A DNA stretch of 55,550 nt from Escherichia phage CSP1C. The notes below the pieces were generated by a model that was given only the letters and a program-made list of their open reading frames with translations, did not search any database and had not been told where the DNA came from. Positions 23,211 through 39,520 of the stretch are shown here, piece by piece (the first letter of the stretch is position 1; every line of letters begins with the position of its first letter). A program made the position numbers and the translations under genes. The stretch is from sequence record PQ202980; one strand, 5' to 3'.

Positions 23211-23437
23211 TAGCGATCCTCGATTGCTCTAATTGTGGTTAAATCTAATTCACAGGTTGGAGGGTATCCATAAAGTCCCATTTGTTTTCCTTGTGCATTA
23301 AACCATGTGCCTGACGGATCCTGCCACTGCTTAGGTGTCTTGTGGAGAAATACTACTCTGTTTTCACCGTAATAATTAATTCTTACGCCTGTGTGAGTAT
23401 ATTTACGTTTACCTTTTGGTCTTCTTAAGTTAGCCAT
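23210..23437 (-). CDS. hypothetical small basic protein
   Basis: 75 aa; ATG 23437 overlaps dpdA stop, its own stop overlaps the clamp ATG. Confidence 0.45.
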   Translation of the reverse strand: MANLRRPKGKRKYTHTGVRINYYGENRVVFLHKTPKQWQDPSGTWFNAQGKQMGLYGYPPTCELDLTTIRAIEDR

Positions 23438-24357
23438 CAAAATAACTCCATTACACGATCACGGAATGTGCCGTCATGGGTAGCGTTAATGTTTGCAGCA
23501 ATTACACCATACGCCCATAAGTTGAAGGCAGCACGTGATTCATAGATTGTTGATAAACGTTCGTAAGTGAAACCGTTTTGCTCAAGGTATTTAAGGACAG
23601 CGTCTTGTTCAATTTCAGTTAATGTTGACACATGTTTACCAAAATGATGGCGGTCCGGTGACTTATCTGATACGCGCATTGGTCCCCACGGAGGAGTAAC
23701 CACACTTCCAAACGCTGCCGCTTGAATCCAGGAGGATGAGTCGCAGCTATACCACGGGTAACGCTCCATAATGGTCGTAGACGTAATACCAAATGCATGA
23801 AGCTTAATCTTAGGGCGACCGCTACCATCGCAAATGTATTTGTCCCACATGCGGTCCAGCCAAGTCTTAAGCGTGTCCGTTGAACGCCCTACCATGCCCC
23901 CAATGGTGATATATTCGTAGTTCTTCATGTAGTATTCAAGATAGCGGAAGTCCTCACCAAAGTGAAAGCATGGTAACGGTTTGGCGCCTCGTGCTTCCAT
24001 TTCAAGCTGGTTACGGTAGGTTTGCAGTGGGTCCCCGATACCATCAAGTACCGATGCCATTACCGCACCATCTTCTACCCGCAGAATATCTTTGTTGCGC
24101 TTGATGTACTCGCAGTATTCAACAATATCAATATGAGCACCCAAAGAGTGCGCAGAGAATGCACCGGAGTCGAGAAACACTTTAGCCCCGTCCGCACGCA
24201 TTTGATCAACATACTTCTGACGCCCAACGTAGTGGTATGATTCCAAAATATGGGGCAGATTGCGCGTGATATTTTTCTCATGCTCCGACAGCTTTTCATA
24301 ACGCTGCTGTCCAGGCATATATCCGTTTGTGTAAACTGCTGCCATAAAAACGTTCAT
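23437..24357 (-). CDS. dpdA: DpdA-like tRNA-guanine transglycosylase homologue (7-deazaguanine DNA insertion)
   Basis: 306 aa; TGT-like protein sitting beside folE/queD/queC/queE. Confidence 0.65.
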   Translation of the reverse strand: MNVFMAAVYTNGYMPGQQRYEKLSEHEKNITRNLPHILESYHYVGRQKYVDQMRADGAKVFLDSGAFSAHSLGAHIDIVEYCEYIKRNKDILRVEDGAVMASVLDGIGDPLQTYRNQLEMEARGAKPLPCFHFGEDFRYLEYYMKNYEYITIGGMVGRSTDTLKTWLDRMWDKYICDGSGRPKIKLHAFGITSTTIMERYPWYSCDSSSWIQAAAFGSVVTPPWGPMRVSDKSPDRHHFGKHVSTLTEIEQDAVLKYLEQNGFTYERLSTIYESRAAFNLWAYGVIAANINATHDGTFRDRVMELF

Positions 24358-24360
24358 GAC

Positions 24361-24567
24361 TTACTCCACGTTGTTTAAAGCTACTACTTCAATGAGATAA
24401 TTTTCTTTCTTAAAGCATTGCTCGCTTAAGATTTGTTCAACTCTAACATGTAGATCCGCATGAATTTGTTTTGCGTTACTGCTTTCAGCAATACCGTCCA
24501 TACATAACAGAACTCTGAAAGTACCTTTTTCTACAGCTCGAACGTTGAAAAAGTATTGTCTTACCAT
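24361..24567 (-). CDS. hypothetical small protein
   Basis: 68 aa from ATG 24567 with SD GGAGG; between folE terminator and dpdA. Confidence 0.4.
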   Translation of the reverse strand: MVRQYFFNVRAVEKGTFRVLLCMDGIAESSNAKQIHADLHVRVEQILSEQCFKKENYLIEVVALNNVE

Positions 24568-24582
24568 ATTTCCTCCAATGAC

Positions 24583-24620
24583 TAAAAAGCCCATACCAGT
24601 ATTATGACCGATATGGGCTT
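24583..24620 (-). terminator. rho-independent terminator after folE
   Basis: 9 bp stem AAGCCCATA / TATGGGCTT followed on the minus strand by TTTTT. Confidence 0.55.
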
Positions 24621-24638
24621 GATCTGTAAAGCTATCTA

Positions 24639-25226
24639 TTATTTACAAGCTTCAAGGAACTCCCGGCGCCATTCTTTACCAATATCGCTACCATGCTCCA
24701 GTTCTGTAGCGCCCCGGAACGCTTTGGTAATAGTAGAGCTACCACATACCTGCTTAACTCCGCGCGACTCCATGCACATATGTTTGGCGTCAATATAAAC
24801 GCATACAGCTTTCGGATTTAGGTGCTCCACAATAGCATCCGCAATCTGGTTAGTAAGTCTTTCCTGTACTTGTAAGCGACGTGAAAAAGCATCCACCACG
24901 CGAGACAGCTTACTAAGACCGACAATGCGACCGTTGGGGACGTAGCCAACCACAGCACGCCCAATAATAGGGGCCATGTGATGCTCGCAATGACTGTATA
25001 CAGGAATATCGCGGACAATGACCATTTCATTCGAACCTTCCGCACCATCTTCAAAGGTTTTAAACAATCCAGCGATATTTACATCGTAACCACCGAACCA
25101 TGTAGCATAAGCTTTAGCTACACGTGACGGAGTTTCTTGTAAGCCTTGACGCAGAGTAGGTGAAGCATGGTCTTCAATATTAAACAACAGGGACATCACA
25201 GCGTTTTCAACAGCTTTAATATTCAT
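24639..25226 (-). CDS. folE: GTP cyclohydrolase I
   Basis: 195 aa with hallmark HCEHHMAP motif and overall FolE-like sequence. Confidence 0.85.
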   Translation of the reverse strand: MNIKAVENAVMSLLFNIEDHASPTLRQGLQETPSRVAKAYATWFGGYDVNIAGLFKTFEDGAEGSNEMVIVRDIPVYSHCEHHMAPIIGRAVVGYVPNGRIVGLSKLSRVVDAFSRRLQVQERLTNQIADAIVEHLNPKAVCVYIDAKHMCMESRGVKQVCGSSTITKAFRGATELEHGSDIGKEWRREFLEACK

Positions 25227-25261
25227 GGTTTGCAGTTTCCTTGTTTGTTAATGTGGTCATA

Positions 25262-25795
25262 TTACAGGCTATAGTTTACGTGACATTTCGAAGTTTCTTC
25301 GATGGTGCATTCTACAAGTTGAACACCATGTTCGTCAAGCAGTTGCGGCCCAATTACGTTAACCATATATGCAGCTAAATTTTCCGCAGTCGGGTTGAAC
25401 GGTAAAGACACCAGCGAGTTGTCAAAGTCCCTTACATCTTGACCCGTAGTTTCGTCACAAAGTTCACAATCAACCTGAAGAGCTTTAATCAAAGGATCTT
25501 CTTCCCAATGCAGGAACTTATGATCCCAATTATCTTCCAACCACTGGCAGAGTGTAGTTTTAACCACACTAAAGTCAATCACGCGCCCGACGCGGTCCAG
25601 CTTAGCGCGCTCTTTTACTTCAACGTTAACAAGACCTCCGCCCATTTCAATTGGTACTTCTTTGACTGTTTCTTTCGGTGCAACCTTAAAGTGAAACTTA
25701 TAGTTGTGACCGTGAAGGTGACGGCACTTGCTTTCATGACCAACAACACGATGCCCAGCGCAAATTTCATGTGAACGAATTACTGTATAGCTCAT
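25262..25795 (-). CDS. queD: 6-carboxy-5,6,7,8-tetrahydropterin synthase
   Basis: N-terminal CAGHRV..HGHNY motif characteristic of the PTPS/QueD family; longer than bacterial QueD. Confidence 0.8.
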   Translation of the reverse strand: MSYTVIRSHEICAGHRVVGHESKCRHLHGHNYKFHFKVAPKETVKEVPIEMGGGLVNVEVKERAKLDRVGRVIDFSVVKTTLCQWLEDNWDHKFLHWEEDPLIKALQVDCELCDETTGQDVRDFDNSLVSLPFNPTAENLAAYMVNVIGPQLLDEHGVQLVECTIEETSKCHVNYSL

Positions 25796-26382
25796 TTTAA
25801 TACCTCTTTAGACTGTTCAATTTCTAATGCACGCTGTGCGGATGCAATAATATCTTTCAAATCTTCTACCAGACTTTTATGACCACGTTCGCCCGGCTGC
25901 AACGCCTTTTTAATCAAATGTTGTAAAGCTGGGTTAGTTGTTTTCCAAGCTTCCAAGACATCATACACGTCCACGATGCATTTTACAACATTGCCGTTTT
26001 CATCTTTACCATAAATAATTTTCTGATATTTATTCATGGGAATTTTAGATGGTTCATATTTGGTAAAAACTGCACCATTAAATGTATTACTTATGCTTAT
26101 TCCAGAAGAAGGTTGATGGTACACTCCGGAGCGAGTGTTTTCGCTGGCTTGTTTGACGTAATCATCCGCAACGATATATCGCCAGGCTATAATATCTTGA
26201 ACTTTATAAGGGCTATATTCATCCATAGCTGAACGCCCTTCTATAGCCCAATCCCATCCATGTAATAAATTCTTAACGTGTGTGCCGTTGCGCAAACGAA
26301 CTTCAAACTTCTCATTACGAAGAAAAATAGGCATTCCTTTACCGTCGTGTTGGTGCCAAATTTTATTAAGATTATCTTTCAT
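25792..26382 (-). CDS. hypothetical protein embedded in 7-deazaguanine cluster
   Basis: About 196 aa; ATG 26382 couples to upstream stop, own stop overlaps queD ATG; no recognisable catalytic motif. Confidence 0.5.
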   Translation of the reverse strand: MKDNLNKIWHQHDGKGMPIFLRNEKFEVRLRNGTHVKNLLHGWDWAIEGRSAMDEYSPYKVQDIIAWRYIVADDYVKQASENTRSGVYHQPSSGISISNTFNGAVFTKYEPSKIPMNKYQKIIYGKDENGNVVKCIVDVYDVLEAWKTTNPALQHLIKKALQPGERGHKSLVEDLKDIIASAQRALEIEQSKEVLK

Positions 26383-26383
26383 T

Positions 26384-26863
26384 TTACGCTCTCGCTGTAC
26401 GTGAATGAACTTCGTAAACAACCCAAAGGATGGCAGATGCTGTGAACTTGCTTAAGCTCATTGCTACCATTGATCCCGGATTAACAATACCTATAATACT
26501 TAAGAACACAATGGAGTCAATCGGTACAGCTACCAAAGAGCTAATAAATACACGTTGATGAAACGGCTTCTTAGTAATCGTGTATACCGCATAGTCCGCA
26601 AACTCACTGAGGGCAAAAGACGCAACTGATGCAACTACAACAGCAGGATCCCCAAATACCCAGCTAAGGATACAACCGACAATCATTGCAGGGATAACAC
26701 CTTTACCTGCGTTACGCTGTGCATAGTCGCGCAACACAAAGATAATACCTACAAAGAAAGCCATCATTGGGACTACGCCAAGCGGCGTGTTAAGCATTGG
26801 AAGGTAGGAAAAGCCCAGGTTTACGAATGTAATTGCAGCCAGATAAGCAACGATAAATTTCAT
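26384..26863 (-). CDS. putative queuosine-precursor transporter (YhhQ/DUF165-like) membrane protein
   Basis: 159 aa polytopic membrane protein from ATG 26863 (SD GGAGAA); location inside the preQ0 gene cluster. Confidence 0.5.
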   Translation of the reverse strand: MKFIVAYLAAITFVNLGFSYLPMLNTPLGVVPMMAFFVGIIFVLRDYAQRNAGKGVIPAMIVGCILSWVFGDPAVVVASVASFALSEFADYAVYTITKKPFHQRVFISSLVAVPIDSIVFLSIIGIVNPGSMVAMSLSKFTASAILWVVYEVHSRTARA

Positions 26864-26983
26864 ACTTTTGTTCTCCAGTTTTAACAGCGTTATTCGCTGG
26901 TTGTTGGGTTTAAAAGCTTTAGTAGTATAGTTGGGTTCCCGCACCCTAAACAATGCGCTAGCGGTGCGGTTTTCGCGGTAAGA

Positions 26984-27691
26984 TCAAGCTTTGCTAATAA
27001 ATTCGCTGTACCCTTTAGCACGCAGTTTGCACGCAGGGCATTCACCGCAACCATAGCCCCAGTCATGCAGAGTGCGACGGACGCCGTTATAACACGTATG
27101 GGACTGCTCAATTACTGTGGTTAAGAAGCCAACCTTATCCGCCAGCTCAAACGTTTCTGCTTTATTTAAACGCATAAGCGGGGTAACAAAATGAATATCT
27201 GTTTCATATCCAACGTTTAACGTAGCTTCAAGAAGATCAACAAACTGCTGGCGACAATCCGGATAACCGCTATAGTCTGTTTCACAAACGCCTGTAACCA
27301 CATATCGGGCTCCAACTTTCTGCGCGTAGGCGTGCGCGGTAGTCAGGAAAAGAGCATTACGGTTTGGCACAAAGCTAGCCGGAAGGTTTTTGTGCTGTTC
27401 GTGATGTTCGTTAACATCACCTTCGTTCCCGATTAAAGCGCTATTACCAATCTGTTTCAAAGCAGGTAATTCAAAGACAACAAATGGGACATCGTGCTCT
27501 TTACAGATCTGTTCAGCGCAAGCCAATTCCACAGTGTGACGTTGACCGTATGCAAAACCAATAGCGTAAACCTTATCATAGTTATTAAGTGCAAGACCTA
27601 AACAGGTCACGCTGTCCTGGCCGCCAGACAGGACGACAACGGCGGAGTTATGATTTTTTACAGGGAATACCAGTTTATCTAATTTATTCAT
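26984..27691 (-). CDS. queC: 7-cyano-7-deazaguanine synthase
   Basis: PP-loop VVVLSGGQDS and C-terminal Zn-binding Cys cluster CYNG..CGECPAC; ATG 27691. Confidence 0.85.
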   Translation of the reverse strand: MNKLDKLVFPVKNHNSAVVVLSGGQDSVTCLGLALNNYDKVYAIGFAYGQRHTVELACAEQICKEHDVPFVVFELPALKQIGNSALIGNEGDVNEHHEQHKNLPASFVPNRNALFLTTAHAYAQKVGARYVVTGVCETDYSGYPDCRQQFVDLLEATLNVGYETDIHFVTPLMRLNKAETFELADKVGFLTTVIEQSHTCYNGVRRTLHDWGYGCGECPACKLRAKGYSEFISKA

Positions 27692-27692
27692 T

Positions 27693-27881
27693 TTAGAAAC
27701 CTTTAAGGCTAATATTAAGATTAACGACCACTTGTTCAACTACATCATCAGATGTCATCTGACGCTTATGAATTTCAAGCTCCGAATGTATGTTCTTGGA
27801 TGCAGCACGACAGATAGCGTCATTCAGCTCGTCTTGTAAACGTTGCATCTTCTGCATAAGAATCACAGTCTCTTCATTCAT
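27693..27881 (-). CDS. hypothetical small protein (paralogue of 27874..28086)
   Basis: 62 aa, SD AAGGTG; shares ELN.AI..A....EL.I pattern with neighbouring gene. Confidence 0.4.
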   Translation of the reverse strand: MNEETVILMQKMQRLQDELNDAICRAASKNIHSELEIHKRQMTSDDVVEQVVVNLNISLKGF

Positions 27882-28086
27882 CTTCTACACCTTTAATATC
27901 ACAAGGATTGATTGTTACAGTTGACATCACAATTGGATGATTGCGTGCCCCGATTGTACTAACGTGATTAATATCTAATTCTACATGCACTCCCTGCATG
28001 GTAGCGTGAGCAATTGCAGAATTAAGTTTTTCTACCAGCTCAGTGATCATTTCCTGATGCTGTTTCGCTTCTTCCAAAGTGATCAT
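27874..28086 (-). CDS. hypothetical small protein (paralogue of 27693..27881)
   Basis: 70 aa, SD GAAGGTG; alternative ATG at 28050. Confidence 0.4.
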   Translation of the reverse strand: MITLEEAKQHQEMITELVEKLNSAIAHATMQGVHVELDINHVSTIGARNHPIVMSTVTINPCDIKGVEDE

Positions 28087-28342
28087 TTCTTTTCACCTTC
28101 ACTAATGTTTGTTTATAATCCATACCTTCAAGGTCAACTTCTGCCATTTCACAAAAGTTATCATCTTCCCAGTATGATGTCCATTTAGTTTGACTGTCCA
28201 TCAACGTTGGCTCATACTCGAATCCGTAAACTGTACCGTCTTGATCCGTAGCCAGCCACCGTACCCATTCAGGGACATCAAGCTTATTGCCAAAGTATTC
28301 AACTTCTTTAGTATGAACAACCTGACTTAATACACGCATCAT
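28040..28342 (-). CDS. hypothetical protein, member of 3-copy paralogous family
   Basis: 100 aa; VPEWVRWLATDQDGTVYGFEYEPT and EVDLEGMDYKQTL shared with ORFs at 49334 and 50172. Confidence 0.45.
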   Translation of the reverse strand: MMRVLSQVVHTKEVEYFGNKLDVPEWVRWLATDQDGTVYGFEYEPTLMDSQTKWTSYWEDDNFCEMAEVDLEGMDYKQTLVKVKRNDHFGRSETASGNDH

Positions 28343-29046
28343 TCCACCCCGATATATTTGTGAACCTGAAGCTGCAACGTGTACCCGTGTTTCATACAGC
28401 TTTTGACAACCGCTTGGATGTTACTGTGGTTAAGGTCTTCATCCTGCTCGTCCATTGGCTGTAAATATATCTTACCCTTGAACCCCTTCGGAGGTCTAGC
28501 GATAAATGGTGTAGCTTGATGATCTAATGCTTGAAGAGGCAAACCATCTTCCACGTTTACACAGCACGCTTTAAGTACATATTTAAATGCATTAGCGCGG
28601 TACAGCACAGAAGGATGAATCTTTGAGGTCTTGGGGCTACATACAATGACAGGTAGCTGGGAAAAGTCCTTCGGTAAAGGCATAGACCCATTAGTTTCAA
28701 TCTGTACCAAATACCCGCGCGATAACAGTTGTTCGACAAAAGGGTTAATTTGCTGACGGAACGGTTCACCACCAGTGATAACCACAAGTGAGGTGCTATT
28801 GCCTGATTCCAGCTTACGGCTTTCGATTAAACGCATGATATCAACAATGTGGTAAAGAGAACGACCTACAGTATAATCAGTATCACAGCCCGGACATTGC
28901 AGGTTACACCCAGCAAGTCGCACAAATACAGCAGGCTGGCCGCAGAATGGACCTTCACCCTGAATGGTAGAGAATACCGAATGCACGTCTAAATACATAT
29001 CGTTTTCTTTAGAACGAGACTCGGGAGCTTGTTGATTAATATTCAT
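28339..29046 (-). CDS. queE: 7-carboxy-7-deazaguanine synthase (radical SAM)
   Basis: Cys motif CNLQCPGCDTDY and VVITGGEP typical of QueE. Confidence 0.85.
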   Translation of the reverse strand: MNINQQAPESRSKENDMYLDVHSVFSTIQGEGPFCGQPAVFVRLAGCNLQCPGCDTDYTVGRSLYHIVDIMRLIESRKLESGNSTSLVVITGGEPFRQQINPFVEQLLSRGYLVQIETNGSMPLPKDFSQLPVIVCSPKTSKIHPSVLYRANAFKYVLKACCVNVEDGLPLQALDHQATPFIARPPKGFKGKIYLQPMDEQDEDLNHSNIQAVVKSCMKHGYTLQLQVHKYIGVE

Positions 29047-29061
29047 CTTAAATCCTCTAGT

Positions 29062-29919: not shown

Positions 29920-30046
29920 TCTCTTCACTCCGAATTGTTATGGGTTCGTTTGTTACCAACGGGGTTAAATGTACCAAAGGATTTTGTGACACGCAACCCC
30001 TTATCCGAACATTTTTAAAAATATTTTTGATCAAGCTTAGAACTTA

Positions 30047-30541
30047 TTAGCTCTTTGCCCCTCTGCCCGGCGTCCATGCAGCTTGCAATGCGGGTCGCTC
30101 ACAAATGACCCTGGCACCGGAAATAATACCACCCTCCCGTTCAGCATCGTATTTGACACGGGCAGGTTTCCAAAGTCCTTCATCCATTGACGGAACGTAT
30201 TGCCCAATTTGAGGTGAGCAAAAGCCTTGGATATCGTATTCCACACAGAATTCGGCTTGTGCGCTGATTTGGGCGTGATCCAGGATTGTTTCTGGAAGTT
30301 GCGTAAAGTAATCAAACAAAATGCGCTCAACGATTTCCCGTTCATAAGGTGCAGCTCCTAAGTTTTCTGTCAAGTTAATATAAAGCATTTGAAGATCAAC
30401 ATCTTCAAGATTGTGTAAATCGTCTACTGGTGTTACCAGTGTTGACTCAGGGCAACAAATAATTCCAAGTTGGTGTAGTGTCAGCCAATTGGGATGCTTT
30501 GCCAAGAGTTCAAATTTATCTGTGTCAATTAGGACGTACAT
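30047..30541 (-). CDS. hypothetical protein
   Basis: 164 aa ORF downstream of helicase. Confidence 0.45.
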   Translation of the reverse strand: MYVLIDTDKFELLAKHPNWLTLHQLGIICCPESTLVTPVDDLHNLEDVDLQMLYINLTENLGAAPYEREIVERILFDYFTQLPETILDHAQISAQAEFCVEYDIQGFCSPQIGQYVPSMDEGLWKPARVKYDAEREGGIISGARVICERPALQAAWTPGRGAKS

Positions 30542-30600
30542 TGCAATCCCCTATAAATAAGTAATGCCCCAATAGTAGGGGCATTAGATGTTGAAGTCAA

Positions 30601-32577
30601 TTAGAACGGAACGTAATCCGGATCATCTACTTGTACAGGGTTAACCACATTGTTCACCGTTATGCCTTGCGTATTCTGTGAAACAATATCATCCCAGCTC
30701 ACATCATCATTATAGCTTGGACCTTCTGTTGTTCCATCCTGCCCGTATACTTTAACTTGAATAGCTTCGTCGTCCTGTGGAGCTTCAAACTTACCGAAAC
30801 ACGTACCATCATAATCGTAGTTCAATATCTCAGGCCATTTCTTATTGGTATGAACTTTGATGTATTTCGGTGTTTTAAGCATTGCAGCAACATCAAGAGC
30901 TTCTTCAATAGTTTGTGGTAAAGGAAGATGCGTCCTTTTCTTCCACCATGCAACCGCTTTACGACCTGCCCAGTCACCATGAAGTAGAGCTACCCATTCG
31001 CTGAATATTTTACTACCGCAATAATAAGTCACCTTCATTGTTGGAGGTTTGGAGCTGTCATTGCGTTTAGTGTGCTTCGCATAAGTAACATGCGTAACTT
31101 TAAAGTCTTCAACTACAGGAATGTCCTGCTTAATCAATGCTTCGGTACTTGCTGCCTTTTTAAGTTTGGTTTGGAACTTAAACTCATGACCGCAAAATCC
31201 TTCTTTAACATAATCCGTTCCACGTAGTCTGAATCCCTTCAAATATAATTGTTGAACTTGTTCCTGTGTAACGCTGTCCATAGGAATTGGTGCAAAGCCA
31301 CCGCAATAGCGAGCAGATGCATGATTATACGACCCGCACACATCGCATTCTTTAACCGGAGCAGTACCAGCACCTTTTTCGCCCGGGCGCTTGGGTTTAA
31401 CAGGGTCGTTAATAGGTCCCAAACGGCGCGTATTACCGCTGAAATCCAGTACAAGGCAGTTCTGCTTAGGACTTGCTGCAATAGCTTGCAAGCGACCTTC
31501 CTGCGTGGAAAGATCAAAGCCCTCCGCATATACCGGACGCGTACCGCGACCCAACATCTGAACCCATAGCACCGCCGAGGCAGTTGGGCGAAGCATGATA
31601 ATCAGATCAAGCATTGGATGGTCGAAACCTGTGGTTAAGACGTTGTTGTTTGTCAGCGCTCGAAACTCTCCACGCTTGAACTTTTCAATAATTTCATCAC
31701 GCTCTTTTGCATCAAGCTTTGAGTGAATACATCCGCAACTAATACCCATATCGTTCAGCATATCACACGCATCTTTAGCGTGTTCAATACCAGAACAAAA
31801 TATAAGCCAGCTTTGACGGTCTTCACCACATTCAATGGCTTCCTCAAGTGCGCGGAGTGTTGCGTCGTCGCGGTTTACCGCACTTTGTAGCTCACTCTGG
31901 ATAAACTCACCGCCGCGTTTCCCTACACCATTGAGGTCTAGTTCCATCTTTGTACGCTTTGGCACAACCGGAAGCAAATAGCCTTGCTCCAGGAACCAGT
32001 TAAAGGCTTCAGGGGTAGTTGCATCAAACGTTACTTTATCAAATAAAGCATCATCGTCTTTGTTTTCCTTAACAATTGAACCGTAACCCAGTCGGTAAGG
32101 TGTAGCAGTAAGACCGATAATTTTTAAATACGGGTTAACTTCACGCAATGCTGCAAAGAACTTCTTATACATTGTTGCATCACGCGGACTAATAAGGTGC
32201 GCTTCATCCACAAAGATTAGATCAACCTTGCCGAACTTTTTAGGATGCTTAGCAACAGATGCAATCCCCGCAAATGTGATAAGATTATAGACTTCTTTAC
32301 GCTTCAAACCTGCGCTGTAAATACCTGCTGGCGCTTCAGGCCAGACTTTCATTAATTTATCATAGTTTTGTGCAATTAACTCTTTGACGTGAGTTAACAT
32401 CATTACGCGCTGGTTTGGATACCATTTATAAAGCAGATCGAGGAACCCCGCGATAACGAGCGATTTTCCTGTCCCTGTTGGTAACAGGATCAAAGGGTTC
32501 CCCGCGTTACCCTTTTCAGCATCAAAATAGCGGAATACGCTATAAACTGCTTCCTGTTGATAATCGCGGAGCTGCAT
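30601..32577 (-). CDS. SF2 DEAH-type DNA helicase
   Basis: Walker A PTGTGKSL and DEAH box FVDEAHL; ATG 32577 (track start is TTG); C-terminal Cys-rich region. Confidence 0.8.
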   Translation of the reverse strand: MQLRDYQQEAVYSVFRYFDAEKGNAGNPLILLPTGTGKSLVIAGFLDLLYKWYPNQRVMMLTHVKELIAQNYDKLMKVWPEAPAGIYSAGLKRKEVYNLITFAGIASVAKHPKKFGKVDLIFVDEAHLISPRDATMYKKFFAALREVNPYLKIIGLTATPYRLGYGSIVKENKDDDALFDKVTFDATTPEAFNWFLEQGYLLPVVPKRTKMELDLNGVGKRGGEFIQSELQSAVNRDDATLRALEEAIECGEDRQSWLIFCSGIEHAKDACDMLNDMGISCGCIHSKLDAKERDEIIEKFKRGEFRALTNNNVLTTGFDHPMLDLIIMLRPTASAVLWVQMLGRGTRPVYAEGFDLSTQEGRLQAIAASPKQNCLVLDFSGNTRRLGPINDPVKPKRPGEKGAGTAPVKECDVCGSYNHASARYCGGFAPIPMDSVTQEQVQQLYLKGFRLRGTDYVKEGFCGHEFKFQTKLKKAASTEALIKQDIPVVEDFKVTHVTYAKHTKRNDSSKPPTMKVTYYCGSKIFSEWVALLHGDWAGRKAVAWWKKRTHLPLPQTIEEALDVAAMLKTPKYIKVHTNKKWPEILNYDYDGTCFGKFEAPQDDEAIQVKVYGQDGTTEGPSYNDDVSWDDIVSQNTQGITVNNVVNPVQVDDPDYVPF

Positions 32578-32579
32578 AA

Positions 32580-33488
32580 TCAATCTTTCCCGTAATAGTT
32601 AGCCACTTGATAGTTTTGACAACCAACTTTTTGACCCTGCGTATCTACTGCAACGGAATGGAAATTGCAATACCATGTTCCATCATCTTTTGGCTCAAGA
32701 AATTGACATGTGCGACAGTTTACTTCCGGCATAGTTTTACGCCAGCACAATGAGGCGTGATCGCACCATTTGCATTCGAAGAAGGTAGAGTCTTTGAATG
32801 CACGGTCAGGAATATCCGTAGCAATAGCAATCTGCACACCACGATCAATATACATGTCCGCAGTGACCGGATCAAATGGAATAATTTCTGCGTAAACTTC
32901 ATCATCGTTCTTGTTTACAGCAAGATATAACGCTGCGCCAAGTCCTAGCTTTCGCATGTACACGTTCATCTGTACATAGTGCTCAGGTTTAGCTTCTTTG
33001 ACACCTTTAGCTTTCAGTTTCTTGAAAGACTTATCGTTGTGGGTCTTCATTTCAGTAAGCACAGGCATCCCAGGCTGAACGTCCGGACAACCTATAACCA
33101 CACCATCGCAGGAACCGCCAAAGTGTCCGCCAGCTTCGCTAATACGGAACTGGTGTCCGTTTTCATCCTGCTGGTAGACCTGCATACCTGCCGCAAGAAG
33201 CATAGCAATGAAACGCGCTTCTTCCAGATGTCCGCGGTTAAATAGGCGGAGCTGGCGTCCATCGAACTCTTTACGAGTAGCCCAGCGATACCCGTAGAAC
33301 AGCTTGCGAGCACATTGTTGTCCAATAAGGGAAGCACCTAAGTGACTGCGGTTGCCGCTTTCGGGGCGATATGCGTCTTCAATTGTGGGAATGACTACGC
33401 CAAGATATTTACGGTAAGTCCCACCCTGATCTTTTTGCACACCGTCATTGATTGCTTGAAGTGTTTTTTCTGCAATATAAATAGCCAT
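32580..33488 (-). CDS. PD-(D/E)xK nuclease with C-terminal Cys cluster (Cas4/RecB-like exonuclease)
   Basis: DGVV...LTEMKTH D/E-K arrangement plus four C-terminal Cys (CKWCDHASLC, CRTC). Confidence 0.55.
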   Translation of the reverse strand: MAIYIAEKTLQAINDGVQKDQGGTYRKYLGVVIPTIEDAYRPESGNRSHLGASLIGQQCARKLFYGYRWATRKEFDGRQLRLFNRGHLEEARFIAMLLAAGMQVYQQDENGHQFRISEAGGHFGGSCDGVVIGCPDVQPGMPVLTEMKTHNDKSFKKLKAKGVKEAKPEHYVQMNVYMRKLGLGAALYLAVNKNDDEVYAEIIPFDPVTADMYIDRGVQIAIATDIPDRAFKDSTFFECKWCDHASLCWRKTMPEVNCRTCQFLEPKDDGTWYCNFHSVAVDTQGQKVGCQNYQVANYYGKD

Positions 33489-33499
33489 TGGAGTACCTT

Positions 33500-33527
33500 A
33501 GAAAAATAAGCCGTCTTTCGACGGCTT
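33500..33527 (-). terminator. rho-independent terminator
   Basis: AAGCCGT ctttcg ACGGCTT stem followed on the minus strand by TTATTTTTC. Confidence 0.55.
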
Positions 33528-33552
33528 AGGGACACTACAGAGGGAGGTTAAC

Positions 33553-34422
33553 TTACTGCTGCCACGGCGGGACTGCTGCTTGTGCCGGATGCGGTTCAGC
33601 TTGCTGCTGTGGCTGCGCTTGCTGCTGCGGTGCTGCTGCCTGACCCGGCTGTGCTACCTGCTGCGCCCATGGCTGCTGAGCTGCTTCCGGCGCTACTGGC
33701 TGTTGTACCGGAGCTTGCTGAACTGGCTGCTGCGGCGCTGCGTTTTGAGCAGGATTATCCCACGGCTGCGGTGCGGCATTCTGCCACGGTTGAGCTGCTG
33801 CGCCCTGCTGCGGTGCTGGTTGCTGAACAGGCTGCTGTTGCTGTACCGGAGCTTGCTGCTGTACAGGTGCTTGCTGTTGCTGAGCAAACGGGTTAGCTGC
33901 TGGCTGCTGCGGCGCTGCGCCCGGGAAAGTTGGCTGCTGTGCTGGCGCACCTGCACCGAACGGGTTAGCTACTGCTGGAGCGCCCATTGATGGAGCCTCT
34001 GCTGCTTTTTCTGCATACTTAACCGGATCGTTGATGTTAGCGTAACCGTTCGGCTCGTTGCTGTCTTCATAACCTTCCTGAGAACGAACTTTCAGACGCA
34101 GGTTCAGCGGAATGTTATGCAGTTGAGCAGGAGTATCCCAGCGAATTACACCTACTGCGTGGGAAAGTGCGCCCAGTTGCTCATAAGCGATACGCACAGT
34201 ATCTTCATTGTCGTTGATGACGTTGTAGCGAGCGAAGATTTTACGACCTTTAGCAAAACCGTCAATGATGCTAAACGTTACCTGGATCGCCATACCGCCA
34301 TTTTTGGTCGGTTTAAATTCAGATGCTTCAATTACTGCTTTATACCAACCTTTCGGCAATGCGCCGTAAGAAGGTGCTTGATAGCTGCTCGCGTCAAAGT
34401 GGAAATTAGTTGGCATAGTCAT
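33553..34422 (-). CDS. SSB-like (DUF669-type) protein with Q/P/A-rich C-terminal tail
   Basis: Globular N-terminal ~150 aa, then ~140 aa low-complexity tail with repeated PW motifs; adjacent and coupled to Sak4-like ATPase. Confidence 0.5.
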   Translation of the reverse strand: MTMPTNFHFDASSYQAPSYGALPKGWYKAVIEASEFKPTKNGGMAIQVTFSIIDGFAKGRKIFARYNVINDNEDTVRIAYEQLGALSHAVGVIRWDTPAQLHNIPLNLRLKVRSQEGYEDSNEPNGYANINDPVKYAEKAAEAPSMGAPAVANPFGAGAPAQQPTFPGAAPQQPAANPFAQQQQAPVQQQAPVQQQQPVQQPAPQQGAAAQPWQNAAPQPWDNPAQNAAPQQPVQQAPVQQPVAPEAAQQPWAQQVAQPGQAAAPQQQAQPQQQAEPHPAQAAVPPWQQ

Positions 34423-35150
34423 TAGTTGATACCTTTCATTTTGTTGATAACAGAACCTAAGTGTGGGACTTCAACCGCATCTAAACGTCCCGAACGATCC
34501 TTAGCGATTGTATTAAAGTCCGGTTGAGTTTGCAAGTAACGATATGAGTTACCTTGCTGATCCTTATTTACATTCAGACGAAACACTTCGTCGAAGAAGT
34601 AAGGGAGCATTTGCCCCAATTTGGACCCAGGCATAGATGGAGCATACGCGGTAACACCGGAGACTTCATCTTTGTCTTTGCCCATTTTAGCAGACATATA
34701 AACATGTTTGCCAGGAATATCGCGAAATTTACGGATCAGATCTTGCATCTTTTCAAGCAAAGTACCATAAGCTTGACGAGGATCTTTTGTTCCTTTTTTC
34801 GCATTGTTTAAACATTGTTCAGCAATTTCGCTCAAGCTGTCAAGCGCAATAGAATCGAAATACTGCTGGTTAGCTGGAGTTATACACCACTGATAAGCAG
34901 CTTCAACGTCCTCCAGACATTTAACTTCAATAACTGGGATATCATAAACGATCGGCAATCCCATGTTACCATAAACGCGATTAAGGTTTTCCGCTGCAAT
35001 AGATAACAGACCGGACTCTGCGCTGATCAAAATTGGTTTAGGTAGTGTGGCTACAAGGCTGGTTTTACCCATACCCGCTTCACCGTAAACCAGAATTTTA
35101 ACGCCTGTGTCTTGCACTACTTGTGAAGACATTTTAATTTCAATGGCCAT
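34422..35150 (-). CDS. Sak4-like RecA-fold ATPase (single-strand annealing / recombination)
   Basis: Walker A GEAGMGKTS near N-terminus, ~240 aa, typical pairing with a DUF669/SSB-like gene. Confidence 0.65.
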   Translation of the reverse strand: MAIEIKMSSQVVQDTGVKILVYGEAGMGKTSLVATLPKPILISAESGLLSIAAENLNRVYGNMGLPIVYDIPVIEVKCLEDVEAAYQWCITPANQQYFDSIALDSLSEIAEQCLNNAKKGTKDPRQAYGTLLEKMQDLIRKFRDIPGKHVYMSAKMGKDKDEVSGVTAYAPSMPGSKLGQMLPYFFDEVFRLNVNKDQQGNSYRYLQTQPDFNTIAKDRSGRLDAVEVPHLGSVINKMKGIN

Positions 35151-35215
35151 TTAACGCCTCTCTTTTAAGTTCGTGCTCATTGTAACGTAATATACTTTGA
35201 ACCCTCAATTACTTT

Positions 35216-36130
35216 TTAATCTAATGCCTGATCACTTTCATCGCGGAAATGCATAAAGTTAGCAAAACGCGGTTTATCTTTAACGCCATGAGGAAAGTGT
35301 TTATATGAAATAGTCCGACCTTTAATCTTGTCAGGGTTATTCCAATAATAAATCTTATCCTCTTGCGTTAGTTTACCAGGACTAACGTTGATTGTATTGC
35401 CAGTCTTAACGTCTTTACAAACAAGCGTCCCAATCATACCGTTAGGAACTTTATTTTCCTGATGTGAAGATCGTGTAGTCCTTCCCAGCTCGTTAACGGT
35501 AGCTTCATTAAGATTAGTTTCACCCTCAATAATATCGAGGACAATAGCGTCTTCCTGAATAAAGCGTTTAATACGAAGATATCCACCTTCGCGAACTGTA
35601 CCTCGCCCATGCTTATAAGGCTTTTCAGGATCGCGGATAATAATACCTTCATAACCCATATCAAGCCAGATGTTTTCCCAGTAGAGCAACTCTTGCAAAG
35701 ACTTAACCACATACATTGGCACAACTTGCAGATCGAGCAGTTCACCTTTCGCGTGCTGTGTGGTTATAAAATCTTTCATCATGTTGTAGCGTGCTTCATA
35801 GCCCATCTCTGCAACACTTTCAGCACACAGATCAAAAATGTGCCATTTCAGGAACGGTTCGCCTTCAATTGTGTTTACCGCACTGGTTGTTTTACGGCAC
35901 AGGTCGGGATCTGTTTCAACTCCGGCCGCAAGCTCACCGTCATAGCCCATGTACTGTGGACCACTGAAAATCGCGCTTGTATGGCGGTTTTTAAACAGCT
36001 TTAAGCTGCGCCCTACTATCTGCCCGTCCGGATTTAAACCGCGCACACCGTCGATTTTAGGCAGTATGCAGCACGGAAACTTAATCTTTTCTTCAACCGC
36101 GTCAGTTGCTAAATGTGGTTTAAAAGACAT
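35216..36130 (-). CDS. ATP-dependent DNA ligase
   Basis: Adenylation motif KIDGVRG near N-terminus; ~300 aa. Confidence 0.75.
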   Translation of the reverse strand: MSFKPHLATDAVEEKIKFPCCILPKIDGVRGLNPDGQIVGRSLKLFKNRHTSAIFSGPQYMGYDGELAAGVETDPDLCRKTTSAVNTIEGEPFLKWHIFDLCAESVAEMGYEARYNMMKDFITTQHAKGELLDLQVVPMYVVKSLQELLYWENIWLDMGYEGIIIRDPEKPYKHGRGTVREGGYLRIKRFIQEDAIVLDIIEGETNLNEATVNELGRTTRSSHQENKVPNGMIGTLVCKDVKTGNTINVSPGKLTQEDKIYYWNNPDKIKGRTISYKHFPHGVKDKPRFANFMHFRDESDQALD

Positions 36131-36131
36131 A

Positions 36132-36755
36132 CTACAACCTCATCCAAGTTTGATAGTCAGCTTCTGTATAATGCTGTTCACGCTCACGTTTAGTAAGCAT
36201 ATCAGCTTTCTCCTTCATACGGGTATTACGACGTAAATGCCCGCTACCCTTTTTAGGTCTGTTTTCCTTTTTCTTTGCTTCGGAAATAAGCTCTTTGCAT
36301 TCCTGCAAACGGATCTTGCTTCTTTCCAATCGCATAGCAGAACGCGCACGTTCATCACAAAATCTTTGAGCTTTGCTACGCTGGTCCTGATTACTTGTAT
36401 GACCTTTAACGTGGCGAAACTCAATAGTAAGGTTATATTTACGAAGTTGATCGTTCAACCATTTGAAAGCTGTACCTTCCTGTTCGCTTTTCCAGCTTGC
36501 CTCTTTATACACTTTAATAGCTGTTGAACAATCTGTTTGCACAATTAAATGATCACCCAATTGAATTAAATTAGCTTTCAATCCTTCCCAAATAACATTA
36601 CAGATTGCCATTGTTTCAGCTGCATTGTTATCCGGAGCACCGCGTAATGGGCCACCATTAGCATTATTTCCACGGTTACAGACTACCCATCCACCATATC
36701 CTGCGGCTTTTGTATTTGGGCAAAAACTTGCATCAGAAATAATTGTTACTCTCAT
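36132..36755 (-). CDS. ribonuclease H
   Basis: ISDASF...GYGGW...ETMAI...TDC...HVKGH pattern of RNase H catalytic residues. Confidence 0.65.
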   Translation of the reverse strand: MRVTIISDASFCPNTKAAGYGGWVVCNRGNNANGGPLRGAPDNNAAETMAICNVIWEGLKANLIQLGDHLIVQTDCSTAIKVYKEASWKSEQEGTAFKWLNDQLRKYNLTIEFRHVKGHTSNQDQRSKAQRFCDERARSAMRLERSKIRLQECKELISEAKKKENRPKKGSGHLRRNTRMKEKADMLTKREREQHYTEADYQTWMRL

Positions 36756-36799
36756 TGTTTTTCCTTAATAAACAGGGGGTCGAAAGACCCCCTTGTAAG

Positions 36800-37030
36800 T
36801 TATGCAGGAATAGATTCTTCCGGTTCTTCAGGGATCACGATTTCAATCTCTTCTTCATTTTGGAAGGTTAGACGGAAACCATCTCCTGGGCGCCCGAAAG
36901 CAAAGGTAAGGGCTATCGTATTATCCTGCTCGTAATGACAGATACTTTCTACTTTCATTTCGTTACCGTAAAAGTCACGGTAAATCATTCCAGGAAGCGC
37001 ATCGGTCGCTTTGATCTTTCTTACAGCCAT
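36800..37030 (-). CDS. hypothetical acidic small protein
   Basis: 76 aa ORF followed by terminator-like hairpin (36766-36793). Confidence 0.4.
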   Translation of the reverse strand: MAVRKIKATDALPGMIYRDFYGNEMKVESICHYEQDNTIALTFAFGRPGDGFRLTFQNEEEIEIVIPEEPEESIPA

Positions 37031-38948: not shown

Positions 38949-39416
38949 TTATTGAATTGAACCGCGATCAATTAACCATTGTTTCGCGTGAGCTTTAAAA
39001 ATAATGCGATAGTCATCAAGACTAATCTCCGCGCGGATGGAATCTTTAACTTCGTACCACTGCCACTCACCATTGCTAAAGACAACTGGATTGAGTGGTA
39101 GAACAACCTTCCATCCTTTACGTTCTATTTTATACATCAGAACTGGATATCTGCCAATCTCTTTAGCGGATTGAACAGTCTGCTTCCACCATGTGTTCAC
39201 CTGTGGCGTAGCATGGTTTTTTACTTCAACCGCATGGTGGCATGTATTGCTAATATCGCAACCACCGACCGCACTTTGATTCTGGTTACGCTGAGCAATA
39301 GGTTTCTCCGGTAACTGCATCCCCAGCTCTGCGTAGATTTCGGCATAAATTGCATTAAAGAAATCGCATACTTCCCGCTCACCGCGTTGACCTTTAGCGC
39401 GAATATTTACTGCCAT
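38949..39416 (-). CDS. putative PD-(D/E)xK Holliday-junction resolvase-like nuclease
   Basis: ATG 39416 with SD GGAG; N-terminal AKGQRGERE followed by D...EVK arrangement. Confidence 0.45.
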   Translation of the reverse strand: MAVNIRAKGQRGEREVCDFFNAIYAEIYAELGMQLPEKPIAQRNQNQSAVGGCDISNTCHHAVEVKNHATPQVNTWWKQTVQSAKEIGRYPVLMYKIERKGWKVVLPLNPVVFSNGEWQWYEVKDSIRAEISLDDYRIIFKAHAKQWLIDRGSIQ

Positions 39417-39489
39417 GTTTGTCTCCATAACTTTAATGTAAAACACTTCATAAAGAATTTTATATTGAAGTTCTGTTGATCTCAAGGAA

Positions 39490-39520
39490 CAAAAAAGCCC
39501 AGGCATAAGGATTCCTGGGC
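39490..39520 (-). terminator. rho-independent terminator
   Basis: GCCCAGG cataaggatt CCTGGGC stem followed on the minus strand by TTTTTT. Confidence 0.65.

Follow-up and report, generated by a model that had tools for sequence, protein, structure and literature searches.

The replication region of Escherichia phage CSP1C raises the question of which genes make up its recombination machinery and how their expression is tied together. An earlier note on the stretch of 55,550 nucleotides (nt) analysed here (sequence record PQ202980; the whole stretch is hereafter the window) had read three adjacent genes, encoding a Cas4/RecB-like nuclease, a single-strand-binding protein (SSB) and a Sak4-like ATPase, as one coupled recombination unit with a DEAH helicase downstream. 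The three minus-strand genes coincide exactly with predicted open reading frames, family scans agree with the identities proposed for them, and the downstream gene does encode a DEAH-box protein of helicase superfamily 2 (SF2). The grouping of the genes, however, appears to be different. The locus is probably best described as a four-gene phage module for recombination and recombination-dependent replication, lying in one operon and organised as two translationally coupled pairs, Sak4 with SSB and nuclease with helicase. The features concerned are as follows.

34422-35150, minus strand: Sak4-like, core-only RecA-type ATPase of 242 amino acids (aa) (PF13479 AAA_24, phrog_124)
33553-34422, minus strand: DUF669 SSB of 289 aa (PF05037, SSB PHROGs, predicted OB fold)
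33507-33528, minus strand: terminator-like hairpin in the spacer between the SSB and nuclease genes, TAAGCCGTC-GAAA-GACGGCTTA then TTTTTC
32580-33488, minus strand: Cas4-like PD-(D/E)xK exonuclease of 302 aa (phrog_1990, fold, motifs)
30601-32577, minus strand: RadD-like SF2 DEAH helicase or translocase of 658 aa (ResIII and Helicase_C, RadD matches)

Gene order among related loci

Gene order was compared across 80 loci from IMG/VR whose nucleases are 47-99% identical to that of the window. The order AAA_24 ATPase, DUF669 protein, nuclease and helicase was present in every one of the 50 loci that had more than 2.5 kb of upstream sequence; the Sak4 position was occupied by members of the same clade as the Sak4 protein of the window in 31 of these and by a second AAA_24 clade in the other 19. 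A ligase gene lies further upstream in most of the related loci with enough flank. The same order was found in distantly related phages of the genera Septimatrevirus (PA73), Loughboroughvirus (SE4) and Kleczkowskavirus (RHph_N17), in which the nuclease is 32-37% identical and all of which encode DUF669 proteins. The gene order of the module is conserved beyond chance, and the suggestion in the earlier note that the nuclease is a partner of Sak4 is backed by this strict synteny across distant phage genera.

Gene junctions and the intergenic hairpin

The stop codon of the Sak4 gene and the start codon of the SSB gene share the sequence TAATG, an overlap of 1 nt, and the nuclease and helicase genes meet as TGA-TT-ATG with a gap of 2 nt (an alternative TTG start for the helicase at position 32583 would give an overlap of 4 nt; GenBank uses the ATG). 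The 64 nt that separate the SSB stop (33553) from the nuclease ATG (33488), by contrast, contain a hairpin. Because of this spacer, the description of the trio as joined by overlapping or near-overlapping stops and starts is correct for Sak4 and SSB and fails for SSB and nuclease.

The same partition was evident among the related loci, for which intergenic distances are approximate since gene starts were projected from alignments. The gap between the Sak4 and SSB genes had a median of 1 nt (10 nt or less in 35 of 58 loci) and that between the nuclease and helicase genes a median of 3 nt (10 nt or less in 62 of 77), whereas the SSB and nuclease genes were separated by a median of 72 nt, ranging up to 2 kb, and in none of 63 loci by 10 nt or less. 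Unrelated genes have been inserted at this junction, including those for a dCMP deaminase in SE4 and a DUF165 protein in RHph_N17, as well as others. A coupled unit of three genes is thus not what these distances describe; translational coupling would join Sak4 to SSB and nuclease to helicase.

The hairpin between the pairs has a GC-rich stem of 9 bp and a GAAA loop, with a minimum free energy of -19.7 kcal/mol and a z of -2.05. A GC-rich hairpin followed by a run of T residues was found after the SSB stop codon in 45 of 63 related loci, comprising 36 distinct sequences and starting a median of 14 nt past the stop; its position is conserved while its sequence is not. The background frequency of such structures was 57 in 3200 random 100-nt windows (1.8%), and they followed the stop codons of the other genes in 1/58 (sak4), 0/79 (nuclease), 0/46 (ligase) and 6/70 (helicase) cases. 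The hairpin between SSB and nuclease is also present in PA73, SE4 and RHph_N17. In the window, only about 18 nt separate the T-run from the nuclease ATG, too few to accommodate a promoter, so that expression of the nuclease and helicase has to depend on read-through. Since read-through is required, the most plausible roles of the hairpin are those of a leaky terminator, an attenuator or a stabiliser of the 3' end of the Sak4-SSB mRNA. None of the Rfam families was matched within positions 30000-37000. Upstream of sak4, a sigma-70-like site with a 9/12 match, a doubtful promoter candidate, is located at 35208-35179; such sites occurred in only 13 of 55 related loci compared with 6% of controls.

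The Sak4-like ATPase and the DUF669 single-strand-binding protein

The Sak4 protein consists of 242 residues with no extra domain. It matched PF13479 (AAA_24) across residues 16-220 with an E-value of 1.2e-27 (97.4 bits against a cutoff of 27) and phrog_124, 'Sak4-like', at 1.8e-59. The Walker A motif GEAGMGKT is formed by residues 23-30 (35061-35084) and the Walker B motif IALDS by residues 101-105 (34836-34850). End to end, the protein aligns with ORF032 of PA73 at 28% identity (E 2e-30), a Sak4 protein for which weak oligonucleotide annealing in vivo has been reported (Lopes 2010, PMC2896510).

Members of the second AAA_24 clade, which fill the Sak4 position in about one third of the related loci, are approximately 280 aa in length, carry the motifs GxEKxGKTT and WDLLLHSPKN and match both PF13479 (5e-30) and phrog_124 (1.6e-27). 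A profile built from the Sak4 clade of the window misses this divergent clade entirely (17 of the 50 loci). Loci encoding it just upstream of the DUF669 gene include L030, L031, L032, L035, L037, L041, L052, L058, L062, L071 and L072.

The product of the adjoining gene matched DUF669 (PF05037) at 6.6e-14, with 52.6 bits against a cutoff of 21, in addition to several PHROGs annotated as 'SSB', and PF05037 was present in all 120 of the SSB homologues listed. An oligonucleotide/oligosaccharide-binding (OB) fold is predicted at approximately residues 20-135, followed by a tail of 154 residues that is predicted to be disordered and is rich in Q, A and P (45, 40 and 31 residues, respectively). Unlike those of the HK620 and Escherichia coli SSB proteins, this tail is non-acidic. 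The DUF669 protein of HK620 (HkaK) is a bona fide SSB whose last six residues, NDYPPF, recruit and stimulate Sak4, and some 80% of sak4 genes adjoin an ssb gene (PMC5928155); an independent prediction also makes DUF669 a divergent SSB with an OB fold (PMC4889955).

No acidic C-terminal tip of the DDDIPF or NDYPPF type was found on the SSB of the window, the tail of which ends in AAVPPWQQ with PPW in its place; among relatives, the last 15 residues include between 0 and 3 acidic residues. Two tail motifs are conserved: QPW at residues 219-221 (33760-33768) and PPW at residues 285-287 (33562-33570), 2 residues before the C-terminus. Across 40 SSB homologues of 41-94% identity, W221, P286 and W287 do not vary; Q219, P220 and P285 are retained in at least 90%. 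A P(P/A)W motif occurs within the last 10 SSB residues in 53 of 63 related loci and also in the distant SSB proteins of PA73 (APWGQR), SE4 (PAPWEE) and RHph_N17 (PAWAQQ). The plus-strand open reading frames at 33580-33990 and 33582-33896 were rejected as artefacts that mirror the low-complexity, CAG-rich sequence encoding this tail.

The Cas4-like nuclease

The nuclease matched phrog_1990, 'Cas4-domain exonuclease', at 1.4e-117. An AlphaFold2 model built with 29 homologues had a mean predicted local distance difference test score of 87.3 and a predicted template modelling score of 0.85, and its top Foldseek matches in the PDB were Cas4 SSO0001, LHK-exonuclease, Cas4 Pcal_0546 and lambda exonuclease, each with a probability of 1.0; AdnAB and Dna2 were also among the fold matches. 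The model thus predicts a PD-(D/E)xK fold of the RecB-like type. Conservation was assessed over the 150 best cluster representatives, which share 36-56% identity with the query. The conserved residues of the catalytic D...ExK and QxxxY motifs are D128 (150/150; within 33102-33119), E146 (148/150) and K148 (150/150) in the motif E146-M-K148 (33045-33053), and Q173 (150/150) and Y177 (141/150), encoded at 32958-32972.

A cluster of four cysteines had been singled out in the earlier note. It is present as C59 (within 33306-33320) together with the CX2CX5C motif C239-X2-C242-X5-C248 (32745-32774), each residue being kept in 147-149 of the 150 representatives; one N-terminal cysteine plus CX2CX5C constitutes the Cas4/AddB 'staple' (Zhang et al., PMC3466216). 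The number four requires amendment, as a second conserved Cys4 module (C258, C261, C274 and C290; 32619-32717) brings the total of conserved cysteines to eight. A missing PD-(D/E)xK fold or unconserved cysteines, either of which the earlier note would have accepted as refutation, is not what was found: the fold is predicted, and the cysteines of the Cas4 set are retained in at least 147 of 150 representatives. The exonuclease Cas4 SSO0001 acts in the 5'-3' direction and has a four-cysteine iron-sulphur (Fe-S) staple like that of AddB; in relatives, zinc can replace Fe-S (PMC3466216). Scanning of the Cys-rich C-terminal fragment of the nuclease gave only insignificant matches, to Zn_ribbon_RPB9 (E 0.16) and LRV_FeS (E 0.31).

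The family to which the nuclease belongs is large, comprising 4900 clusters at E <= 1e-3 (90% library); clustering at 50% gave 4122 representatives, of which 1829 were matched at E <= 1e-30, and 420 phage records were matched. Two distant members exceed the cutoff of PDDEXK_1 (26.3 and 25.5 bits against 22). The window has no CRISPR-cas context, the nuclease gene being part of the replication operon of a lytic phage, and the protein is 'Cas4-like' only, of the solo type found in mobile genetic elements, and no CRISPR Cas4.

Two observations were set aside. Ankyrin repeats and eS27, the best sequence matches of the nuclease, were regarded as noise. In P0166, a metagenomic protein of 653 aa, nuclease residues 1-195 are fused in frame with helicase sequence that starts near residue 100. 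Neither Cys module is present, nor is the Walker A motif of the helicase; the protein was judged to be the product of a deletion or misassembly, probably not a natural fusion, and was not counted as evidence.

The RadD-like helicase and its C-terminal tip

The helicase contains ResIII and Helicase_C domains, with a Walker A motif GTGKS (32461-32475), the DEAH box at residues 124-127 (32197-32208) and a CxxC motif (31336-31347). The NCBIfam RadD/YejH model was matched at 1.6e-78 with 264 bits, below the equivalog cutoff of 720, and was aligned over positions 1-358 of 573. In the PDB, E. coli RadD (6jde) was matched at 9.3e-55 over residues 3-348, the next match being at 2e-13. The C-terminal half of the protein matched no family in the scans. 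RadD accelerates strand exchange by RecA (PMC8887467) and binds the C-terminus of SSB (PMC10238739).

The acidic tip that is absent from the SSB is found on the helicase, which ends in VDDPDYVPF (last 9 codons, 30604-30630, minus strand), a sequence resembling the NDYPPF of the HK620 SSB. A tip of the form acidic-x-(I/V/L)-P-F is present in 59 of 70 complete orthologous helicases, many of which end exactly in DDDIPF or D(F/M)DDDIPF; DDDIPF is the C-terminal tip of E. coli SSB. The acidic tip co-occurs with either Sak4 clade. The helicases of PA73, SE4 and RHph_N17 have none.

Binding of the tip within a RadD-type SSB pocket of the same helicase was considered as an explanation and is weakened by the loss of two of the three key arginines: relative to the RadD pocket (residues from PMC10238739), Arg21 is replaced by Asp19, Arg49 by Asn and Arg145 by Lys in a single pairwise alignment, which is weak. 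With two of three pocket arginines lost, the phage helicase looks like a presenter, and less a reader, of an SSB-like tip. Partners of the tip could be proteins of the host SSB interactome, Sak4 or, as in the case of T7 gp4 and gp2.5 with their acidic tails, the polymerase.

Proposed function of the module

The four proteins can be arranged as an annealing pair and a processing pair. SSB would coat 3' single strands and may, through its disordered tail and by analogy with HK620, in which this has been shown, recruit Sak4, an ATP-dependent annealase comprised of a RecA core only. The metal-cluster exonuclease and the RadD-like SF2 motor most likely form a resection or branch-processing pair, which, acting like AddAB or Dna2, would remove the 5' strand from DNA ends or forks and thereby supply 3' single strands to Sak4 and SSB. 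Cas4-like nucleases have repeatedly teamed with helicases (PMC5704561). A leaky intrinsic terminator after the SSB gene would probably lead to high expression of Sak4 and SSB and low expression of nuclease and helicase. Products would be sealed by the adjacent ligase, giving concatemers, restarted forks and repaired genomes as output.

Several points weigh against this arrangement. The PPWQQ tip of the SSB is non-acidic and differs from the NDYPPF that recruits Sak4 in HK620, and proteins of the Sak4 family have shown low recombineering activity in tests. The nuclease of the window gave no Pfam or NCBIfam match at E <= 0.01, including to Cas_Cas4 (PF01930) and PDDEXK_1 (PF12705), and PDB sequence searches with the single sequence or with a 29-sequence profile gave none that was significant; its relationship to Cas4 therefore rests on fold, motifs, relatives and PHROGs. 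The polarity and metal content of the nuclease, its complex with the helicase and the activity of the terminator are all features that we infer.

A more elaborate version, which we put forward only tentatively, would treat nuclease and RadD-like motor as a dedicated two-subunit resection machine in which the second Cys4 module binds a second metal centre (Zn or Fe-S). The DDDIPF-type tip of the helicase would functionally mimic the bacterial SSB C-terminus and attach the machine to Sak4 or to proteins of the host SSB interactome, and the SSB would have exchanged its acidic tip for PPW, amounting to a re-wired SSB-tail interaction code.

A role centred on replication is rather unlikely to be the whole explanation. 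DUF669 would here be the general replicative SSB, Sak4 a factor for initiation or fork restart, and the nuclease and helicase a Dna2-like processor of flaps and forks, with end resection for annealing not being the main job. The relationship to RadD and the annealing data for Sak4 favour recombination intermediates over Okazaki processing, and primer removal and sealing are already covered by a separate RNase H and the ligase. Because recombination-dependent replication needs both functions, a replicative role is compatible with the two-pair recombination module preferred here; the two overlap and are inseparable computationally.

Use of the nuclease and helicase for degradation of host DNA or for counter-defence, through competition with RecBCD or the steering of spacer acquisition as in Campylobacter phages, seems very improbable. 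Phage Cas4-like proteins have been linked to the acquisition of host spacers (PMC4283603, as cited in PMC5704561), and the hairpin would set the nuclease-helicase pair transcriptionally apart from Sak4 and SSB. The nuclease is nevertheless found beside AAA_24 and DUF669 in every locus examined, in hosts with and without the relevant CRISPR types, and it belongs to a family outside Pfam Cas_Cas4 and to a window devoid of CRISPR context. Equally hard to credit is the absence of any specific functional coupling, with the genes being neighbours only through inheritance of the replication operon as a block: unrelated genes are tolerated between SSB and nuclease, where the terminator-like hairpin also lies, yet the order persists down to approximately 32% protein identity, across genera and across replacement of the AAA_24 clade, while within-pair junctions stay at 0-3 nt, which argues for selection and not inertia, and an interaction between Sak4 and SSB has already been shown in HK620.

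Comparison with known systems

A close counterpart is the pair of HK620, in which a core-only, RecA-like AAA_24 ATPase (HkaL) likewise adjoins a DUF669 SSB with a disordered tail (HkaK; Hutinet et al. 2018, PMC5928155). The companion in HK620 is Abc2, a hijacker of RecBCD, whereas the module described here has its own nuclease and helicase; and the acidic tip borne by the SSB of HK620 has its DYVPF-type counterpart here on the helicase, the SSB ending in PPWQQ. ORF029-032 of PA73 (Pseudomonas phage 73) encode the same four families in the same order (Sak4, DUF669, eight-cysteine Cas4-like exonuclease, SF2 helicase). They differ in being 28-32% identical, in a spacer of approximately 510 nt between the SSB and nuclease genes and in a helicase that lacks the acidic C-terminal tip. 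For gp30-33 of Burkholderia phage KL1 and BcepGomr gp43-45 the comparison covered the published exonuclease and Sak4 homologies (PMC3483164).

In contrast to Lambda Red (Exo/Beta) and RecET, the module has an annealase that is a RecA-derived ATPase and not a Rad52-like protein, and a nuclease that carries Cys-metal modules. The coupling of exonuclease and annealase genes seen in those systems was not found either; the nuclease gene is coupled to that of the helicase and is separated from Sak4 by the SSB gene and the hairpin. AddAB, AdnAB and Dna2 share with the second pair the combination of an AddB/Cas4-type nuclease bearing a four-Cys 'staple' and a DNA motor. The motor is a fused SF1 helicase in those enzymes and a separate SF2 RadD-like polypeptide here, where no Chi-type regulation is evident. 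The CRISPR Cas4 proteins SSO0001 and Pcal_0546 resemble the nuclease in the RecB-like fold, the D...ExK...QxxxY motifs, the N-terminal cysteine and the C-terminal CX2CX5C; the phage nuclease has in addition an N-terminal helical extension of approximately 45 residues and the extra conserved C-terminal Cys4 mini-domain. With E. coli RadD (YejH) the helicase shares a homologous SF2 motor core of approximately 345 residues and a Cys-rich segment following the core, whereas the C-terminal halves are unrelated by sequence and the phage protein itself bears an SSB-tip-like C-terminus.

For a list of parts for Sak4 recombineering, these data suggest the cloning of two pairs, Sak4 with SSB and nuclease with helicase, instead of three genes, with the native hairpin probably setting the ratio between them. 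Candidate interaction handles are the PPW and QPW motifs of the SSB and the DDDIPF-type tip of the helicase, and a second conserved Cys4 module is a feature of a large phage nuclease family with more than 4000 cluster representatives. Apart from the two distant members that reach PDDEXK_1, this family escapes current Pfam and NCBIfam models. Sak4-type recombinases are known targets of anti-phage systems (PMC11846896), and knowledge of their partners helps in the interpretation of escape mutants.

Genomic setting and existing annotation

In reverse complement, the segment 30000-37000 of the window matches Cronobacter phage CSP1 (KY982929.1) at 100% identity; its identity to about 30 Escherichia phages belonging to the genus Seuratvirus (Queuovirinae), among them Seurat and CAjan, is 93-97%. 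In CSP1 the Sak4 gene product is labelled 'putative DNA repair and recombination protein', those of the SSB and nuclease genes 'hypothetical protein' and the helicase 'putative helicase-like protein'. The corresponding RefSeq labels for Seurat are 'Sak4-like ssDNA annealing protein', 'hypothetical protein', 'Cas4-domain exonuclease' and 'DNA helicase'.

The homologous exonuclease of PA73 and KL1 has previously been paired with Sak4 (Lopes 2010, PMC2896510; Lynch 2012, PMC3483164), and exonuclease and Sak4 of PA73, KL1 and BcepGomr were proposed to form 'a conserved recombination system' (PMC3483164). Given these proposals of 2010-2012, the cooperation of Sak4 and SSB published in 2018 (PMC5928155) and the names carried by RefSeq relatives, the module is already known. 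It is an ordinary one that mainly confirms existing annotation, with the tail motifs and the second Cys4 module as modest leads. The two-pair architecture with its conserved attenuator-like hairpin, the second Cys4 module and the tail motifs may be new, no previous description having been found in the literature searched.

The module is located in the minus-strand replication operon of a lytic phage, flanked on one side by RNase H and ligase genes and on the other by a 7-deazaguanine cluster (queC/D/E, folE, TGT-like), a clamp gene and PolB. Two further features adjoin it directly.

35216-36130, minus strand: ATP-dependent DNA ligase gene directly upstream of the Sak4 gene (family scans; conserved module neighbour)
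30562-30586, minus strand: terminator-like hairpin directly 3' of the helicase stop codon (RefSeq Seurat has an annotated terminator at the corresponding position)

The second of these is likely to mark the end of the nuclease-helicase unit. It is followed by a gene (30047-30541, minus strand) for a protein of 164 aa that matched phrog_7864 (5e-61) and no Pfam family; a phrog_7864 gene is also found 3' of the helicase in at least 12 related loci. A second nuclease candidate is encoded in the same operon at 38949-39506 (minus strand), for which annotations conflict: Pfam assigns it to PDDEXK_15, 'phage putative PDDEXK endonuclease' (2e-13), whereas PHROGs and RefSeq describe a RusA-like Holliday-junction resolvase. 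Mapping of the CSP1 annotation onto the window places the DNA-modification cluster of queC, queD, queE, folE and a TGT/DpdA-like gene at approximately 23400-29050 (minus strand), directly downstream of the module and followed by the clamp and PolB genes.

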